Assembly (NCBI GenBank): GCA_031424495.1
Contig: JANPHP010000270.1
Location: forward strand, 10,929-74,928
From: Bacteroidota bacterium
Lineage (GTDB): Bacteria > Bacteroidota > Bacteroidia > J057 > JADKCL01
Length of the DNA stretch: 64,000 nt
Reading direction: 5' to 3'
The notes beneath the pieces are model-generated. The model did not search any database. It had not been told where the DNA came from and saw only the letters and a list, made by a program, of their open reading frames with translations. Both the position numbers and the translations under genes were made by a program. Numbering within the stretch: position 1 is the first letter of the stretch; the number at the start of each line of letters is the position of its first letter. This document shows positions 52,183 through 62,560 of the stretch, one piece after another.

Positions 52183-52209
52183 GCTAATTTAGAACTATTC
52201 TAAATTAGC
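52183..52209. promoter_or_regulatory. Fur-box-like palindrome
   Basis: GCTAATTTAGAA-CTA-TTCTAAATTAGC upstream of feoA, between divergent -7 boxes (minus GAAATTTG 52173-52166; plus TATCTTTG 52228-52235). Confidence 0.8.
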
Positions 52210-52343: not shown

Positions 52344-53207
52344 ATGCGCAGAATCTGGCCACTATTGTTTGCGATCGTTTTGCTTGCAGCCTGCAAGCGG
52401 GAAAAGGAAGTCATCATTCCCGACAACGAGGCGCCACCGGACTCGACGGTGAGCAATGTCGTGCTCGAGAGTTATGTGAACCGCAGCTACATCGCATTGC
52501 TCGGCTACCAACCCGATGCCGGGCAGATGGCTGTGAGTACAGGCATTTTGCGCACCCACAATTGCTCGCAGCAAGACCGCGATGCCTTTTTGAGCCAGTT
52601 GGTCGTGCAGCCTGCCTACTTTCAGCGTGTATTTGACATCGGCCGTGGGACCTTGCTCAATGGCATCGACACCTCCGACATCCGCGACGAGCTCACCATT
52701 CTCAATTTCATCCTCTCTGATTCCAACTATTTGCCTTTTTGGCCGCAGGCGCAGCTCGAGCGGGGCCAATTGGTCGACGTGATGGCGATTCCGCAAGACC
52801 TGCAGGCTGGCAGCATTTCCATCATCGAGATGCACCGCCGCCTGGTCACCAACAAAGGTTACGATCAGATCAACATGGGCACGCAAAACTTCGTGATCTC
52901 GGTCTTTCAGAATTTTCTGGCGCGGTACCCGACCGATGCTGAGCGTGCTGCGGGCGAGGTCATGGTGGATGGCTTTCCTTCGCAGTTATTTTTGGAGAAT
53001 GGCCGCACCAAAACCGATTTCATCGCCATTTTCCTTCGCTCCAACGACTACTACGAAGGTCAAGTGCGCGAACTCTTCAGGCGTTACCTATTTCGGGAAC
53101 CGCAAACGGAAGAGCTGGAATCCTATACCCTCAGCTACAAGGCCTCTGGCAACTACCAAGCCCTGCAAAAGGCAGTTTTGAGCATCGACGAATACCTCGG
53201 ATTGTGA
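52344..53207 (+). CDS. Lipoprotein with helical DUF4214/DUF1553-like repeats
   Basis: LAAC lipobox; three repeats YVNRSYIALLGYQP / FVISVFQNFLARYP / QVRELFRRYLFREP; ends LSIDEY. Confidence 0.7.
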   Translation: MRRIWPLLFAIVLLAACKREKEVIIPDNEAPPDSTVSNVVLESYVNRSYIALLGYQPDAGQMAVSTGILRTHNCSQQDRDAFLSQLVVQPAYFQRVFDIGRGTLLNGIDTSDIRDELTILNFILSDSNYLPFWPQAQLERGQLVDVMAIPQDLQAGSISIIEMHRRLVTNKGYDQINMGTQNFVISVFQNFLARYPTDAERAAGEVMVDGFPSQLFLENGRTKTDFIAIFLRSNDYYEGQVRELFRRYLFREPQTEELESYTLSYKASGNYQALQKAVLSIDEYLGL

Positions 53208-53707
53208 AAAAACAATATCATATCATTGCAGGCGTCGCGGTGCTGGGCATCGCGCTGCTGCTGGGCACAGGCTGCAAAAAGGAACCCATTTACACCTACG
53301 GTGTAAATGATGTCACCGTCGAGCAACCCGGCGCCATCAAGCCCAATGTAAAGTCTGACCTGGAGGTGCTGAGCATCGCCTACACCGACCTGTTTGGAAC
53401 GAGCATCTCCGCCGACAAGTTGGAGGCAATGGCACGTGGCTATCAATCGTTTGGCGACAAACGCTTGGTGATGGAGATGGTGATCCTTAATTTTTTAAAT
53501 GATCCCAACGTCGTGATCCCCACCGATGCAGCAATGCGTGCCAATGTGGAAGCCTTTGTCGATGCGTCCTACCACAAGTTTTATGTGCGTGAACCATCGG
53601 CTTTTGAGCGGTGGTTTGTGAGCGACCTCATTCGTGACGACGCCACACTCACACCTGATTTGGTGTACTATGCTTTTATGACCAGTGCTGAATACCGTTT
53701 TTATTGA
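53204..53707 (+). CDS. Lipoprotein with a DUF1553-like C-terminus
   Basis: GTGC lipobox; FV...Y.KFY.REP...E; MTSAEYRFY; GTG start overlaps the upstream TGA. Confidence 0.7.
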   Translation: MKKQYHIIAGVAVLGIALLLGTGCKKEPIYTYGVNDVTVEQPGAIKPNVKSDLEVLSIAYTDLFGTSISADKLEAMARGYQSFGDKRLVMEMVILNFLNDPNVVIPTDAAMRANVEAFVDASYHKFYVREPSAFERWFVSDLIRDDATLTPDLVYYAFMTSAEYRFY

Positions 53708-53718
53708 GGAGCAGGAAG

Positions 53719-55044
53719 ATGAATCGAAGTGAATTTCTGAAAACCTTGGGCCTCGCGACGGCGGGCGCGATCGCATCGCCTTATATCTTGCCCTCGGGCA
53801 GGCTATTTGCCTCGACGGGTTCACGCGCCGTGAACCATGTGGTCGTCTGCCTGTTTGCAGGTGGTGTCCGCAATTTTGAGTCGGTGCAAATGATCGATGG
53901 CAACCTCATGCCCAGCATGTTGCAAGGCTCGGCCGGCATCAGCCCCGACATCGCGGCGGGGATTGCGTCCTTGCCTAGCTCACCCTTGGGTCAGCCCTTG
54001 CAGCAATATGGCACCCTTTACAAGGAGTTTCGCTTTGGCGAGGGGCCCACGGGCCACTACTCAGCCCATCAAGTCGCCCTTACCGGCCGCTATGCCGATA
54101 CCAACCTCAACCTGCGTGAATCGCCCAAGTGGCCGACCATGTTTGAGCTCTACCGCAAGCACTCATCCCCCGTCAAGAATGCGCTGAATGCATGGTGGAT
54201 TTCCAATCAGCTCGGGCCTTACCCCTATTTGAATTACAGCAGTTACGAGGGCTATGGCAGCCTCTATGGCGCCAACTACATGCAGCCGACTTCCTTTTAC
54301 CAGCCGAGCACAGCGCAGGCGCTCGGCAATATGCGCGCCTACACGGCGGGGCAACGCACGAGTCGCGACAAGGTGCGCGACTTCTTGGACAAAAACTTCA
54401 ACTCAGGCTACAACCCCAACGATGCTGGGGTCATCAACACCACAACTGAGGCGGACCTGTTGCGCGATTTCCACGCGGCTACGCTTGCCGGCGTGCAATC
54501 GGGCCTTTATGTCGATCCATGGGCCATCGGCGCACCAAACATGAACAATGACCTCTATTGCATGTTTTTTGCAGAAAAGGTCATCCAACAATTCAAGCCA
54601 GAACTGCTGGTCGTGAACATGACCGATGTCGACATCTGTCACTTTGACTTCACCCGTTATGCCGACGCGCTGCACAAGGCAGACTATGCCGTGGCCCATC
54701 TCTGGAACACGATCCAAAACACGCCCGGCATGGCCAATGATACAGTGCTGATCGTGGTTCCCGAGCACGGCCGCAACCAGATGCCCAATACCGTGATCGA
54801 CGGGTTTGGGCGCTATGCGATCGACCACACGGCGATCGACGGCAGCGGCGACCAGATGTCGCGCGAGATTTTTTGCCTCGTGGTGGGCCCGCCCAACATT
54901 GTGCGGCAAAACCAAGTGATCTCGCAAGTGCGTGGAGAGAGCATCGATGTCGTGCCGACCGTCGCTCGACTTTTGGGCTTTGATTCAGACATTCCAGTAG
55001 GTGTGAGACCTCCTGGACAATACTTGGGGGACGCTCTGATATGA
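53719..55044 (+). CDS. DUF1501-like / alkaline-phosphatase-superfamily exported protein
   Basis: Tat-like MNRSEFLK; VVVCLFAGG, D.DICH, TVLIVVPEHGR, IDH. Confidence 0.7.
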   Translation: MNRSEFLKTLGLATAGAIASPYILPSGRLFASTGSRAVNHVVVCLFAGGVRNFESVQMIDGNLMPSMLQGSAGISPDIAAGIASLPSSPLGQPLQQYGTLYKEFRFGEGPTGHYSAHQVALTGRYADTNLNLRESPKWPTMFELYRKHSSPVKNALNAWWISNQLGPYPYLNYSSYEGYGSLYGANYMQPTSFYQPSTAQALGNMRAYTAGQRTSRDKVRDFLDKNFNSGYNPNDAGVINTTTEADLLRDFHAATLAGVQSGLYVDPWAIGAPNMNNDLYCMFFAEKVIQQFKPELLVVNMTDVDICHFDFTRYADALHKADYAVAHLWNTIQNTPGMANDTVLIVVPEHGRNQMPNTVIDGFGRYAIDHTAIDGSGDQMSREIFCLVVGPPNIVRQNQVISQVRGESIDVVPTVARLLGFDSDIPVGVRPPGQYLGDALI

Positions 55045-55964
55045 AAACACTCCGCATCTTGATCCCAGCCATGTTTTTGACGGTAATCTTGGTGGTTGCA
55101 GCCTGCAAGCGCGAAGACCCACTGCCTGACAATCCTTATGACCACGTGGATTATGGCCATGGTGGCACCAACAATTACACGCCCGACCCAGACGGCATCA
55201 CTGGGATTTACGAAAACATCCTGCGCCAGAAGTGCAGCCTGCCTGGTTGTCACGACGGCCATTTTGAACCCGACTTCCGGTCCATCCAAAGTGCGTGGTC
55301 CACACTGGTCTACCACAAGATCGTGAAGAATACGGCCGACACGGCTTATACCTATCGTGTGCTGCCCCATGACACGGCCGGCTCGATGCTCTGGCACCGC
55401 ATCAGCCGCGGCGATGCGCAATTGCAGCAGATGCCAGCCACGGGTGCCTACTTGTCGGCGACCGAGCTCGCCCACGTGCGCAATTGGATCTTGGGCGGAG
55501 CCAAAGACATGTTTGGCAATGCGCCTTCGCTTCCAAACAACGAGCCGCGCATCTTGGGTTTTGTGGCCTTCAACCAAGCATTTACCACGCAACTCGACGT
55601 CACTGAAAACCGCTTGGACTCCGTGCCCTATTTTCCATTCATCGTCACGCCCAATACCAATTTTAATGTGATCATGCTGGTGGAGGACGACAGTACGGCG
55701 CTCAATCAGCTCCAAGTGAATCAGTTGAAGCTGTCTTTGGATAAAAACAACTTTGTCGGTGCGGCCACGGTGAATGCCTATTTCTTGGGATCGGGCTTCA
55801 ATGTCTGGGTCTGCCCGGTCAACAGCGGCAATTTTACCGTCGGCGACACCGTATACATGCGCTACTATGTCAATGACGGGAATCAGCCCCAAAACTCTGA
55901 GTTTCCGCGCGACGACAGCCAAGATGCCTACAAGACCTACGCAGCATTTTTCGTGAAGCCATGA
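55041..55964 (+). CDS. Lipoprotein with Planctomycete-type cytochrome c domain (CX4CH) and Ig-like C-domain
   Basis: VAAC lipobox; IL..KCSLPGCHDG, S.L..RI, QMP, WI..GA. Confidence 0.7.
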   Translation: MKTLRILIPAMFLTVILVVAACKREDPLPDNPYDHVDYGHGGTNNYTPDPDGITGIYENILRQKCSLPGCHDGHFEPDFRSIQSAWSTLVYHKIVKNTADTAYTYRVLPHDTAGSMLWHRISRGDAQLQQMPATGAYLSATELAHVRNWILGGAKDMFGNAPSLPNNEPRILGFVAFNQAFTTQLDVTENRLDSVPYFPFIVTPNTNFNVIMLVEDDSTALNQLQVNQLKLSLDKNNFVGAATVNAYFLGSGFNVWVCPVNSGNFTVGDTVYMRYYVNDGNQPQNSEFPRDDSQDAYKTYAAFFVKP

Positions 55965-56416
55965 GGAGAATTCCATTCATCTACAGCGCGCCCCTGCTGG
56001 GCTGCCTGCTGCTCTTCGCAGCCTGCAAAAAAGACAAGGTCGACCTGCTCGATCCGGTTCCGACGATCCTATCGGTCACGATCAACCCCTCCAACGTGGT
56101 CGAATACCAAGATTCCATCGTCTTCTCGGTGGCCTACAGAGACGGCGACGGCGATCTTGGCGAAAATGCGCCCGACGTCAAAAATCTGTTCCTCGTTGAC
56201 AATCGCATACAAGTAACCCAAGAATTCCGGATCCGTGAATTGGCGCCAAGTGGGGCCGAGATACCGATCACAGGCACCCTGCGGGTTGTCTTGCGCAACA
56301 CGGGCATCACCGATAATTCTGCTTCGCAAACATTTGACTACACAATCTACCTACGCGACCGAGCAGGGCATGAGAGCGCGCATTTCATCACCGATCAGGT
56401 GACGGTGCGGCGTTGA
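55961..56416 (+). CDS. Lipoprotein, Ig-like
   Basis: FAAC lipobox; Y.DGDGDLG, L.DRAG.ES. Confidence 0.7.
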   Translation: MRRIPFIYSAPLLGCLLLFAACKKDKVDLLDPVPTILSVTINPSNVVEYQDSIVFSVAYRDGDGDLGENAPDVKNLFLVDNRIQVTQEFRIRELAPSGAEIPITGTLRVVLRNTGITDNSASQTFDYTIYLRDRAGHESAHFITDQVTVRR

Positions 56417-56571: not shown

Positions 56572-57888
56572 ATGAAAGCCAACGTTCCAGATCTCAATCA
56601 ACCCCGTGTCCTGATCATAGGCGGGGGATTTGCAGGGATCAATGTCGCTCAAGCGCTCAAAAATGCGCCCGTGCAGGTCGTGATGTTTGACAAGCACAAC
56701 TATCACACCTTTCAGCCGCTGCTCTACCAAGTCGCCACCGGTGGGTTGGAGCCCGATTCGATCGCCTTCCCCCTGCGCAAAATGTTCAAAAAGCAGCAAA
56801 ATTTCATCTTCAGAATGGCTGAGGTGCTGCATGTGGACGCCGACAAGCAGGTGGTGACGACATCCATCGGCGAGATCAAGTATGACTATCTCGTCGTGGC
56901 GACGGGCTCCCGCACCAATTTTTTTGGGTTGCAGGGCTTGGAATCGATGTCACATGGCATGAAAAATATACCCGAGGCACTCGATTTGCGCAGTGTGATC
57001 CTCCAAAATTTTGAAGCAGCCGTGCTTACATCAGACCTCGAGGAGCGCAATGCCTTGATGAATTTTGTCGTTGTCGGCGCGGGTCCTACGGGCCTCGAGA
57101 CGGCGGGCGCATTGGCGGAGCTCAAGCAGCACATCTTGCCTACCGACTATCCCGAGCTGGATTTGCGCCGCATGCAAATCCACCTCATCGAGGCTGGCGA
57201 CCGCGTGTTGCCTGGTATGAGCGCCGAGTCTTCTGAAAATGCACACAAGGCATTGGCCAAAATGGGCGTGCAAATCTGGCTCAATGCCAAAGTCGAAAGC
57301 TACGATGGCGTGCAGGTGCACCTCGCCGGCGGGCGCGAGCTCGATGCAATGACCGTGATCTGGTCTGCAGGCGTGATCGGCAATGCATTGCCCGGTCTGG
57401 AGACGGCAATCTCACGCGGCGGACGATTGGAGGTCGATCAGTTCAATCGGGTCAAGGGTCATACGCAGATTTTCGCGATCGGCGATACCGCCTTGATGCG
57501 CACGGAAGAGTACCCTGCAGGCCACCCTGGCGTCGCGCAGGTGGCGATACAGCAAGGACAATTGCTGGCGCGCAACATCAAGAGCTTGGTTTTCCAACGT
57601 GAATTGCGCGCCTTTAAATACAATGACAAGGGCAGCATGGCCACCATCGGCCGCAACAAGGCCGTGGGCGATGTGAAGCGGCTCAGGATCAAGGGACTCA
57701 TCGCATGGCTCATGTGGATGGTGATCCACTTATTCTTCCTCGCAGGTTTCCGTAACCGGTTGGTTGTCTTTATCAACTGGTTTTGGAGCTATGTCACCTA
57801 CGACAAAGGCACACGCCTCATCATCAGACGGTATGACCGCAAGGTCAATTATCACGATGCGGATGTTGCGGATGAGCTGGTAAAATAA
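56572..57888 (+). CDS. ndh: Type II NADH dehydrogenase
   Basis: GGGFAG, FQPLLYQVA, GAGPTG.E.AG, AIGD, A.VA.QQG, KGSMATIG. Confidence 0.92.
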   Translation: MKANVPDLNQPRVLIIGGGFAGINVAQALKNAPVQVVMFDKHNYHTFQPLLYQVATGGLEPDSIAFPLRKMFKKQQNFIFRMAEVLHVDADKQVVTTSIGEIKYDYLVVATGSRTNFFGLQGLESMSHGMKNIPEALDLRSVILQNFEAAVLTSDLEERNALMNFVVVGAGPTGLETAGALAELKQHILPTDYPELDLRRMQIHLIEAGDRVLPGMSAESSENAHKALAKMGVQIWLNAKVESYDGVQVHLAGGRELDAMTVIWSAGVIGNALPGLETAISRGGRLEVDQFNRVKGHTQIFAIGDTALMRTEEYPAGHPGVAQVAIQQGQLLARNIKSLVFQRELRAFKYNDKGSMATIGRNKAVGDVKRLRIKGLIAWLMWMVIHLFFLAGFRNRLVVFINWFWSYVTYDKGTRLIIRRYDRKVNYHDADVADELVK

Positions 57889-60329: not shown

Positions 60330-61565
60330 TCAGCGGTCGACCTCGCCCAAAACGAAGTCAATCGAGCCCAAAATCGCAATCAAATCTGAGATCATGACGC
60401 CCCGAGAGATCTCAGGCACAACACTTAAGTTGCTAAAACTCGGAGCCCGGCATTTGCAACGCAGGGGGATGTCGCGCTTCCCATCCGCAATGAAATAAAA
60501 GCCCAATTCACCCTTGGGGTTCTCGGCTCTGCTGTAGTATTCGCCAGCTTTGGGACGCGCCTTGGGCGGACACATGGCACGCGGGTCAAAGTTGTCCCCT
60601 CGCGGATGCGCCTTTGTTAACTTTTCCACACACTGCTCAATGATCTTGAGCGACTCGGCGACTTCATCCACCCGCACTTTGTAGCGGTCCCAGCAGTCGC
60701 CGACCTTGCCCATCTCGCCGCGCCCGATGCAGACCTCAAAATCAAGCTCTGGGTAAACGGAGTAGCCGTCCAGACGCCGCAAATCCATTTTCAGGCCAGA
60801 TCCACGGAGTACGGGACCTGAGCAACCATAGTTGATCGCGACATCGAGCGGCAGCACACCCACACCTGCGGTGCGCTCCACAAAGATGAAATTTTCGGTC
60901 ATCAGGCCGTTGAGCTCGGCCAGCTTGGGTTTGAAATAGGCGACAAACTCCGCGCATCGTTCCTCAAACCCGATCGGGATGTCATAAAACAGCCCACCGA
61001 TCCACACGTAATTGTAGAGCATGCGTGCACCAGAAGCCCATTCCAGCATTTTCAAGATATGTTCGCGGTCGCGAAAACACCATAAAAAGGGGGTGATCGC
61101 GCCCACATCCAAGCCGAAGGTGCCTATCGCCACCAAGTGCGAGGCGATGCGGTTGAGCTCTGCGACCAAAACCCTGATATATTCGACGCGCTTGGGCAGC
61201 TTGCCCGTGATGCCCATCATGTCCTCGACCCCCATCACAAAGGCCCAGTTGTTGTTCATCGAGGCGAGGTAATCGAGGCGGTCGGTATAGGGAATGGTCT
61301 GCGGATAAGGCAGCGACTCGGCATGTTTTTCAAAACAGCGGTGCAAGTAGCCGAGGTGCGGGACCACTTCCAGCACGATTTCGCCGTCGGTCACGAGCTC
61401 CAAACGCAGCACACCATGCGTGCTAGGGTGCTGTGGGCCCATGTTGAGGACCATTTCCTCAGAGGCGAGGTCCTGCAAATTGGTTTTGGAGGGCGCGGAA
61501 CGGCGCAGCAACTCGGCATAGTCGAGTTCTGTGCGTTTTGCATTGGGGTGCTGGACGGCGCTCAC
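60330..61565 (-). CDS. nuoD: NADH-quinone oxidoreductase subunit D
   Basis: [37 protein letters not shown]. Confidence 0.96.
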
Positions 61566-62060
61566 TCAGTAGGCAGTTTTGAAATCGTGGTAAAATTCAG
61601 GATTCACGTAGTCTTTGCGCAGCGGATGGCCGGGCCAATCCTCGGGCATGAGGATGCGTCGCAGGTCTGGATGACCTGCGAAGTGGATGCCGAGAAGGTC
61701 AAAGGCTTCGCGCTCATGCCAGTCGGCAGCGCGCCATACGTGCGCAATCGAGGGGATGGTCGGCGCGGCGTCGCCGCGCGCAGCCCAGCACTTGAGCACG
61801 ATGCGGTGCCCGCGTGTGATCGAGCGCACGTGGTAAACCACCCCGATACGAGCAGCCTCTGGCCCCTCGTCGACCCCGCTCAAGCATTCCAAAAAATCAA
61901 AATACAGCGATGGCTCATCCCGCAAAAAGGCGCAAACTGCTACCAAACTTGCTGGAGCAAGCTCCAAATAAGGCTGCGCCACCTGCAAATCGCTGCTAAG
62001 GATGGCCTCCTCACCGACCTGGGCGGCAATGGCTTGCAAAATTGAGGCGGCGGTCATCAT
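61566..62060 (-). CDS. nuoC: NADH-quinone oxidoreductase subunit C
   Basis: [26 protein letters not shown]. Confidence 0.95.
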
Positions 62061-62560
62061 GGCATTTCGGGGTTATTGGGCGTGCCCAAGCTCTGGTTGC
62101 GGATTTTTTCTTGCAGCATCATGATACCGCCGATCAGTGCCTCGGGCCGGGGTGGGCAACCGGGGATGTAGACGTCGACCGGGATCACCCTGTCTACACC
62201 TTTAAGTACATGGTAGCCATGCTCCCAATAAGGGCCGCCGCAATTTGCACAGGAGCCCATCGAGATCACGTAGCGTGGCTCGGCCATCTGCTCATACAAT
62301 CTGCGAATGCGATCTGCCATTTTGAAAGTCACTGTACCCGAGACGATCATCACGTCGCTTTGCCTGGGAGAAGGCCTTGGGAACACGCCCATGCGGTCGA
62401 GGTCATAGTGGCTGGCATTGGTGGCCATCATCTCGATGGCGCAACAAGCCAATCCAAAACCCATCGGCCACAAGGAATTGAGACGCGCCCAATTGATCAG
62501 GTCGTCTAGTCTTGCGAGCACCACGTCGGGCTCTCCGCTCTTCACATCTGAAATTCCCAT
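62057..62560 (-). CDS. nuoB: NADH-quinone oxidoreductase subunit B
   Basis: [28 protein letters not shown]. Confidence 0.96.

Follow-up and report, generated by a model that had tools for sequence, protein, structure and literature searches.

Introduction

The closest described relatives of the system reported here are modules, found in Planctomycetes, Verrucomicrobia and Lentisphaerae, in which a DUF1501 protein (PF07394) is paired with a single partner carrying PSCyt1, PSCyt2 and PSD1 domains (PF07635, PF07583 and PF07587). They occur in large numbers in Planctomycetes and Verrucomicrobia. A role in electron transfer has been proposed for them (PMC3542564), as has a possible part in carbohydrate use (PMC5615132), and both papers describe their function as unknown, which agrees with what a preliminary description of the present locus had said of the planctomycete modules. 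That locus lies in a stretch of 64,000 nucleotides (nt) from a Bacteroidota bacterium, the host (GenBank assembly GCA_031424495.1, contig JANPHP010000270.1, positions 10,929 to 74,928). The whole stretch is referred to below as the window, and positions are counted from its first letter. The locus is a cassette of five genes, G1 to G5, and is a split variant of this unexplained DUF1501/PSCyt module, here cut into five small proteins. No paper on the cassette was found in the literature on DUF1501, DUF1800 and planctomycete cytochromes, subscription journals not covered.

Like the planctomycete and verrucomicrobial modules, the cassette sets a DUF1501-like protein with a leader of the twin-arginine translocation (Tat) type beside helical partners and a partner with a cytochrome motif. 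Unlike them, it has no single PSCyt1/PSCyt2/PSD1 partner protein: the place of the one fused protein is taken by four small lipoproteins, the haem motif is CX4CH rather than CXXCH, the helical parts lack a second haem motif and no member reaches the Pfam cut-offs of the module families. Its third protein shows one clear departure from the known enzymes of its fold, His113 together with Gly48, which is directly testable. The cassette is widespread and open to experiment, but without the iron link that was first proposed for it.

Organization and distribution of the cassette

The five genes, all on the forward strand, are as follows.

G1, 52344-53207, + strand, 287 amino acids: lipoprotein with helical repeats of the DUF4214/phycobilisome-linker type and a conserved YDxINM motif

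G2, 53204-53707, + strand, 167 amino acids, GTG start: shorter lipoprotein, paralogue of G1

G3, 53719-55044, + strand, 441 amino acids: Tat-like leader, alkaline phosphatase fold in a predicted model, DUF1501-like

G4, 55041-55964, + strand, 307 amino acids: lipoprotein with a predicted single-haem c-type domain of the PSCyt1/FoxE type, followed at the C terminus by an immunoglobulin (Ig)-like beta-sandwich

G5, 55961-56416, + strand, 151 amino acids: small lipoprotein in which the motifs DGDGDLG and DRAG are conserved

From G1 to G5 the junctions are a GTGA overlap, an 11-nt gap and two ATGA overlaps, so that the coordinates match the co-oriented set with 4-nt overlaps or an 11-nt gap that had been described. 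The four lipoboxes noted at the same time are borne out by the aligned relatives: the lipobox cysteine (Cys17 in G1, Cys24 in G2 and Cys22 in G5) is invariant in G1 (40/40), G2 (41/41), G4 (40/40) and G5 (40/40), and the residue before it is always Ala, Ser or Gly.

Of 51 non-redundant loci surrounding matches to G3, 37 carry the complete set of five genes in this order. Most of the remaining 14 end at a contig edge, one lacks G5 and four are a lone G3 or distant relatives. G3 is present in 24 of 41 genomes of relatives, the host included, and in five of 400 genomes sampled across the phylum, while G1 is present in 45 of 78 genomes of the host order. Judged from these sequences, the genes form a conserved Bacteroidota cassette whose products are likely to assemble into one lipid-anchored envelope complex.

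G3, a phosphatase fold with a histidine at the nucleophile position

The AlphaFold model of G3 (predicted local distance difference test score 85) has the fold of the alkaline phosphatase superfamily. Its best match is PafA (PDB entry 5too; VIA Z 27.6, root-mean-square deviation 3.7, 302 residues aligned). Structures of PafA, NPP and sulfatase enzymes (5too, 7stt and 7mw8) give Z values of 23-28, 70 chains reach Z of at least 8 and the Foldseek E value is 7e-12. The resemblance to the superfamily that had been suggested from acidic and histidine motifs is thus carried over to the level of the predicted model.

Like PafA, NPP and the sulfatases, G3 retains D305, H308 and H370, which we take to be the ligands of the first metal, and E349 and H350 presumably correspond to the D/E-H pair of the second. 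Unlike these enzymes, it has a histidine in place of the Thr, Ser or Cys nucleophile, a glycine in place of the first Asp, a second-metal histidine that varies and a leader that is Tat-like rather than Sec. The Thr nucleophile of PafA was identified via the structure entry for T79S. His113 of G3 aligns on this Thr, and Gly48 with the VVDQ-motif Asp in the PafA-like protein of the host, in a register for which the profile probability is only 21.8% and which rests on matching motifs together with the fold match.

The pattern is strictly kept. His113, D278, D305, H308, E349, R352, D369 and H370 are present in all 42 sequences of the G3 alignment, in which R51 is also invariant, and Gly48 is found in 41, the remaining sequence being truncated. 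The canonical first-metal ligands (Asp/His/His) and the Glu of the second-metal pair are therefore conserved (42/42). The Ser, Thr or formylglycine-deriving Cys/Ser nucleophile of canonical alkaline phosphatase, NPP and sulfatase enzymes is replaced by His113, and the canonical Asp ligand that follows the first beta-strand is replaced by Gly48. By its sequence, G3 departs from a canonical phosphatase or sulfatase at two defining positions. Either a histidine nucleophile or a redox site would represent chemistry for which a single literature search gave no report in this superfamily.

A deep profile search with G3 gave 1221 representatives at E ≤ 0.001, of which 150 were listed and 83, with lengths of 280-520 amino acids, were retained. 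Among these listed matches the two positions change together. The 13 representatives with the Asp comprise 12 with Thr or Ser at the nucleophile position and one with a gap; the 67 without it comprise 60 with His, one with Thr or Ser, five with another residue and one with a gap; three of the 83 are gapped at the first (Asp) position itself. An RRx[FL] leader is found in 44 of the 60 His-type representatives, versus none of the 12 of the Asp plus Thr/Ser type.

These twelve relatives without a twin-arginine leader are P0082, P0104, P0105, P0112, P0118, P0122, P0135, P0138, P0140, P0149, P0152 and P0153. They may constitute a hydrolytic sister family of the His branch. For P0118, a canonical Asp/Thr relative, a PDB sequence search gave no solved relative at E ≤ 0.01, and the PDB sequence searches made with G3 gave nothing useful.

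The Tat-like leader proposed for the window copy of G3 is seen more fully in its relatives. In the window it reads NRSEFLK, with a single Arg; the 42 relatives carry RRxF in 26 cases, RK in 13 and RS in two, and ten of the 42 match the Pfam family TAT_signal at E ≤ 0.1.

The nearest relative by profile is a DUF1501 protein of the host (locus L081, contig C318), to which the deep alignment of G3 matches over the full length by HHalign with a probability of 95.8%, an E value of 7.5e-9 and about 20% identity. Another host DUF1501 protein gives 32.5%, and the 42-sequence alignment compared with single DUF1501 and PafA-like proteins gives weak matches (71.7%, 0.8% and 0.4%). Motifs common to G3 and DUF1501 are GG, D-x(x)-H, E-x-G-R and DH. 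The Pfam DUF1501 model (PF07394, cut-off 27 bits) gives no hit to G3 itself; it matches 11 of the 42 relatives at E ≤ 0.1, the best at 3e-5, and its search of the host genome finds two other genes. From its sequence G3 would appear to act like a DUF1501-type protein, while not being a member by the Pfam test.

The L081 locus resembles the cassette in that a Tat-type DUF1501 protein stands directly behind a helical partner, presumably of the DUF1800 family (PF08811). It differs in consisting of two genes only. Elsewhere in the host assembly, contig C179 (L080 and L107) carries a planctomycete-style large PSCyt1 protein followed by a DUF1501 gene (517 bits), with a haem-motif protein on the opposite strand. 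This is either a true module of the planctomycete type or a contaminating contig (assembly contamination 2.68%).

G4 and the remaining lipoproteins

The CSLPGCH motif of G4 (residues 65-71) and the downstream MP (residues 131-132), both pointed out in the preliminary description, are invariant in all 40 aligned relatives, with Cys65, Cys70, His71 and Met131 unchanged throughout. Haem binding is predicted from this combination of Cys...Cys-His and a distal Met. A collection clustered at 90% contains 1771 homologues at E ≤ 0.001. The 120 listed, a set that overlaps the 40-sequence alignment, all carry both CX4CH (120/120) and MP (120/120), and all are unnamed or annotated as 'hypothetical'. Two cytochrome c assembly genes (PF01578) are present in the host genome.

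When the profile of the haem domain is compared with the PDB, the best match is FoxE (E 2.6e-4), followed by cytochromes c6 (E 0.24-0.94). Like FoxE from Rhodobacter ferrooxidans SW2 (PDB entry 5mab) and the class I cytochromes c6, the G4 domain has CH, MP (within RMP) and WIxxGA in register. In contrast to FoxE, in which the domain is present twice, G4 contains it once, with CX4CH spacing, a lipid anchor and an Ig-like domain. To our knowledge, G1, G2, G3 and G5 show no resemblance to the partners of the fox operon. Atlas neighbours of G4 at 0.82-0.84 carry PSCyt1 (PF07635), which serves as a lead only. Residues 166-307 form an Ig-like sandwich, which matches generic Ig-like modules with Z values as high as 9.8, and it was only to this C-terminal domain that three fold searches with the whole G4 model gave matches. 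The CX4CH spacing itself departs from the usual CXXCH (PMC3601427). Two of four further PSCyt1-like proteins of the host (L103, L105, L106 and L110) have longer C-terminal regions after their CX4CH domain.

G1 was initially read as a helical-repeat lipoprotein, and the family matches agree with this: DUF4214 is matched at E ≤ 0.1 by 33 of the 40 members, the best having an E value of 1e-8, and among PDB structures the G1 profile finds phycobilisome linker domains (E 2e-7). DUF1549 and DUF1553 are each matched, weakly, at the same threshold in eight of 40 members (PSCyt2 8/40, PSD1 8/40). The PSCyt1 model gives one weak match among 40 cassette sequences, at E 0.095. G1 and G2 align by HHalign with a probability of 89.9% (E 1.7e-6) and, on this sequence comparison, are paralogues. 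Because of the resemblance to DUF4214 and phycobilisome linkers, G1, and with it G2, would likely serve as a scaffold for G3. G5 has invariant residues C22, D61, G64, G67, D80, D133, G136 and S139; it has no Pfam hit, its Atlas neighbours are unnamed and no PDB match falls under E 1. Pfam and NCBIfam scans give no family for G2, G4 or G5.

The proposal that the cassette is a split, lipoprotein-anchored form of the DUF1501/PSCyt module can thus be upheld as a resemblance (the 95.8% match of G3 to DUF1501, the weak DUF1549 and DUF1553 matches of G1 and the PSCyt1-bearing neighbours of G4), and not as Pfam membership, since no part reaches the cut-offs.

The feoAB genes and the Fur-type box

The features that flank the cassette are the following.

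feoA, 52137-51883, - strand: Pfam FeoA, divergent from G1

feoB, start about 51886, to 49760, - strand: Pfam FeoB_N and TIGR00437

Fur-type palindrome, 52183-52209 (19-mer core 52187-52205), no strand: in the spacer between feoA and G1

NDH-2-type NADH dehydrogenase gene, 56572-57888, co-oriented with the cassette: follows G5

Pfam and TIGR00437 confirm feoAB as the divergent neighbours, and the spacer between feoA and G1 is 206 nt. It contains a palindrome with 12-bp arms, the 19-mer core of which, like the Bacteroidota Fur regulon of Riemerella anatipestifer, follows a 19-bp box, differing from it at one central base (18/19). In that species the box is reported as predicted, with electrophoretic mobility shift assays on four promoters (PMC5609570). 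By chance, about 0.001 perfect matches to the two 8-nt arms of the palindrome would be expected in the host genome, where its 9-nt arms occur perfectly at this one site. Other host copies, at up to two mismatches, all lie on one contig (C485 of genome G000; L079:2730-9533), one before a LuxR-type response regulator beside an Fe/Mn superoxide dismutase gene and a second before a DUF4856-imelysin-HTTM-TonB-receptor operon. Since the Riemerella box is matched so closely, a near copy precedes imelysin and TonB-receptor genes and fur homologues are present in the host genome, the palindrome is very likely to be a Fur operator, as its first identification as a Fur-like box had implied. For MliR, PMC9478572 gave no operator sequence for comparison.

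The further step, from feoAB and the box to an iron-regulated cassette, is not supported by comparison with other genomes: outside the host family the homologous loci lack the link to iron genes and Fur boxes, one of the grounds on which the preliminary description would have given the idea up. The box is 138 nt from G1 in the window and 110-140 nt from it in three genomes of the genus. In L074 and L055, where the spacer has grown, it keeps a distance of about 50 nt, and in any case no more than about 90 nt, from feoA, but lies 500 and 2358 nt from G1. In genome G002, which is 93% complete, the box and a flanking conserved block still precede feoA, beside a NuoM-like gene, and neither G1 nor G3 was found; in genomes G007 and G009 feoAB and the box are on one contig and a box-less cassette is on another. 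Because its position follows feoA in all of these, the box belongs, on comparison of the sequences, to the feoA promoter block and not to the cassette. It is a mark of feoAB, without ties to the cassette. Some effect on G1 may nevertheless exist in the host genus, in view of the 110-140 nt spacing in three genomes. In L074 about six tandem repeats of ~42 nt, recognized by eye, are inserted between the box and G1 (L074:5250-5500).

The adjacency itself is confined to the host family, where feoAB adjoins the cassette in eight of ten cassette-bearing genomes of three genera, the host included. Outside the family, the retrieved DNA of 29 loci contains neither feoA nor feoB, and the same is true of another 37 loci for which 1 kb or more of upstream sequence was available (one duplicate removed). 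At up to three mismatches, the box is found no more than 400 nt from G1 in three of the eight feo-adjacent loci and in none of the others (0/34 and 0/39, that is 0/73), and three of the eight (L059, L065 and L078) have no box at all. On a quick G1 tree the feo-adjacent rows need three changes, a result compatible with one origin or with several. The adjacency is best explained as synteny passed down within a single family, and the same holds for the downstream NDH-2 gene, which is found near the cassette only in host-family loci. A survey of immediate neighbours, in which one representative per cluster (54 proteins) was scanned, gave housekeeping and unrelated genes and one TonB_C/peptidase M56 protein. 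No iron-uptake gene recurs among the 54 and none matches a TonB-dependent receptor. A tempting false lead is thereby removed.

Mechanistic considerations

We favour, tentatively and at somewhat less than an even chance, a redox-coupled metalloenzyme complex in which electrons would pass one at a time between the metal site of G3 and the predicted haem of G4. G3 would load its metal in the cytoplasm and then be exported folded via Tat, to be held at the membrane by the paralogous helical adaptors G1 and G2. The first metal site would be retained through D305, H308 and H370, and the second rebuilt from His113, E349 and the variable H350. With the site remodelled in this way, the chemistry would not be ordinary phosphate or sulfate ester hydrolysis. 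The His/Met haem c of G4 would oxidize or reduce the G3 site by one electron, and its Ig-like domain, with G5, might bind a substrate or partner; we guess that the substrate could be an anionic sugar or an envelope polymer. A broader proposal, which we regard as doubtful, is that a large Tat-exported branch of the alkaline phosphatase superfamily, comprising DUF1501 proteins and G3, has swapped the nucleophile and the Asp for His and turned into a redox metalloenzyme coupled to a c-type cytochrome of its own, the cassette being the smallest and fully dissected form.

Several observations weigh against the redox-coupled complex. H350 is present in 35 of the 42 G3 sequences and is Cys or Ile in the other seven. 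The co-occurrence of Gly, His and the Tat leader probably has a single origin, so that the counts are not independent events. A CX4CH domain of the G4 type also occurs in four other host proteins (L103, L105, L106 and L110), and the motif is therefore not special to the cassette. The cassette is fragmented in places: G1 or G1-G2 stand alone in L141, L145, L149 and L150, L098 lacks G1, and G3 is alone in L047 and L048. No cytochrome gene lies beside the DUF1800-DUF1501 pair in the 4-kb L081 locus, and relatives of G3 may accordingly work without a haem partner.

G3 might instead be a non-redox phosphotransferase or phosphodiesterase in which His113 is a covalent nucleophile, passing through phosphohistidine and using the first metal only, with G4 as a sensor or accessory. 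The histidine is exactly at the nucleophile position, and if one metal were enough, the missing second-metal Asp would be accounted for. The lost or variable ligands (Asp48 and His350) are, we assume, those of the metal that activates Ser or Thr in canonical members, and their variation fits the loss of that metal; the invariant R51 and R352 would suit an anionic substrate. We nevertheless consider this rather unlikely, as a single literature search for a His nucleophile in the superfamily listed only a paper on an unrelated acid phosphatase, and it leaves unexplained the haem-type protein beside G3 in nearly every complete locus. We rate as improbable a mainly structural role, in which a metal-binding but catalytically weak platform at the envelope or surface anchors or matures cargo of type IX secretion. 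The scaffold-like character of G1 and G2 (DUF4214, phycobilisome linkers) would fit it, as would the extra co-oriented downstream gene of one paralogous clade (L042-L046, L095 and L096). This gene encodes about 1160-1180 amino acids; the L042 copy has CUB/PKD/CHU_C domains and the L095 copy, which a PorP/SprF gene follows, has PKD/CHU_C. The sixth gene is, however, missing in the window and in the majority of loci, and the strict invariance of D305, H308, H370, H113 and E349 suggests catalysis. The C-X-K-(D/E)2 motif, described in PMC5080379 as the surface-export motif of Bacteroidota lipoproteins, is found in 19 of 40 G5 sequences but is rare in G1 (1/40), G2 (3/41) and G4 (2/40).

The reading from which the preliminary description set out, a complex under iron control that would reduce or otherwise handle iron and pass Fe2+ on to FeoB, now seems to us highly improbable. 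It would account for the head-to-head arrangement with feoAB in eight of ten host-family genomes of three genera and for a box 138 nt from G1 in the window, and the nearest solved relative of G4, FoxE, is described as an iron oxidoreductase (PMC11570789). The FoxE match is, however, weak, at the level of the domain and to a domain that is widespread. The 29 and 37 loci outside the feo-adjacent set lack feoA and feoB, no box lies within 400 nt of G1 in the 73 non-feo loci, and the box stays with feoAB where the spacer has grown or the cassette is elsewhere, three feo-adjacent loci being without one.

Variant loci and other observations

Matches to SscB, phosphopentomutase, SoxZ and GST were below significance and were dismissed. 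A scan for sigma-70 promoters and terminators gave results at chance level, with a model that does not cover Bacteroidota promoters.

A divergent four-gene form of the cassette is present in genome G191 (L094:7307-11258), in which G2 is long, G5 is missing and G1 shows no obvious lipobox; by eye, it sits inside an apparent sugar-nucleotide/glycosyltransferase cluster. In genome G001 (L055:10001-11327) G3 is in two reading frames, by a frameshift or an assembly error. Further along the window, at 60330-62560, three genes resemble, by eye, those for NADH-quinone oxidoreductase subunits B, C and D.

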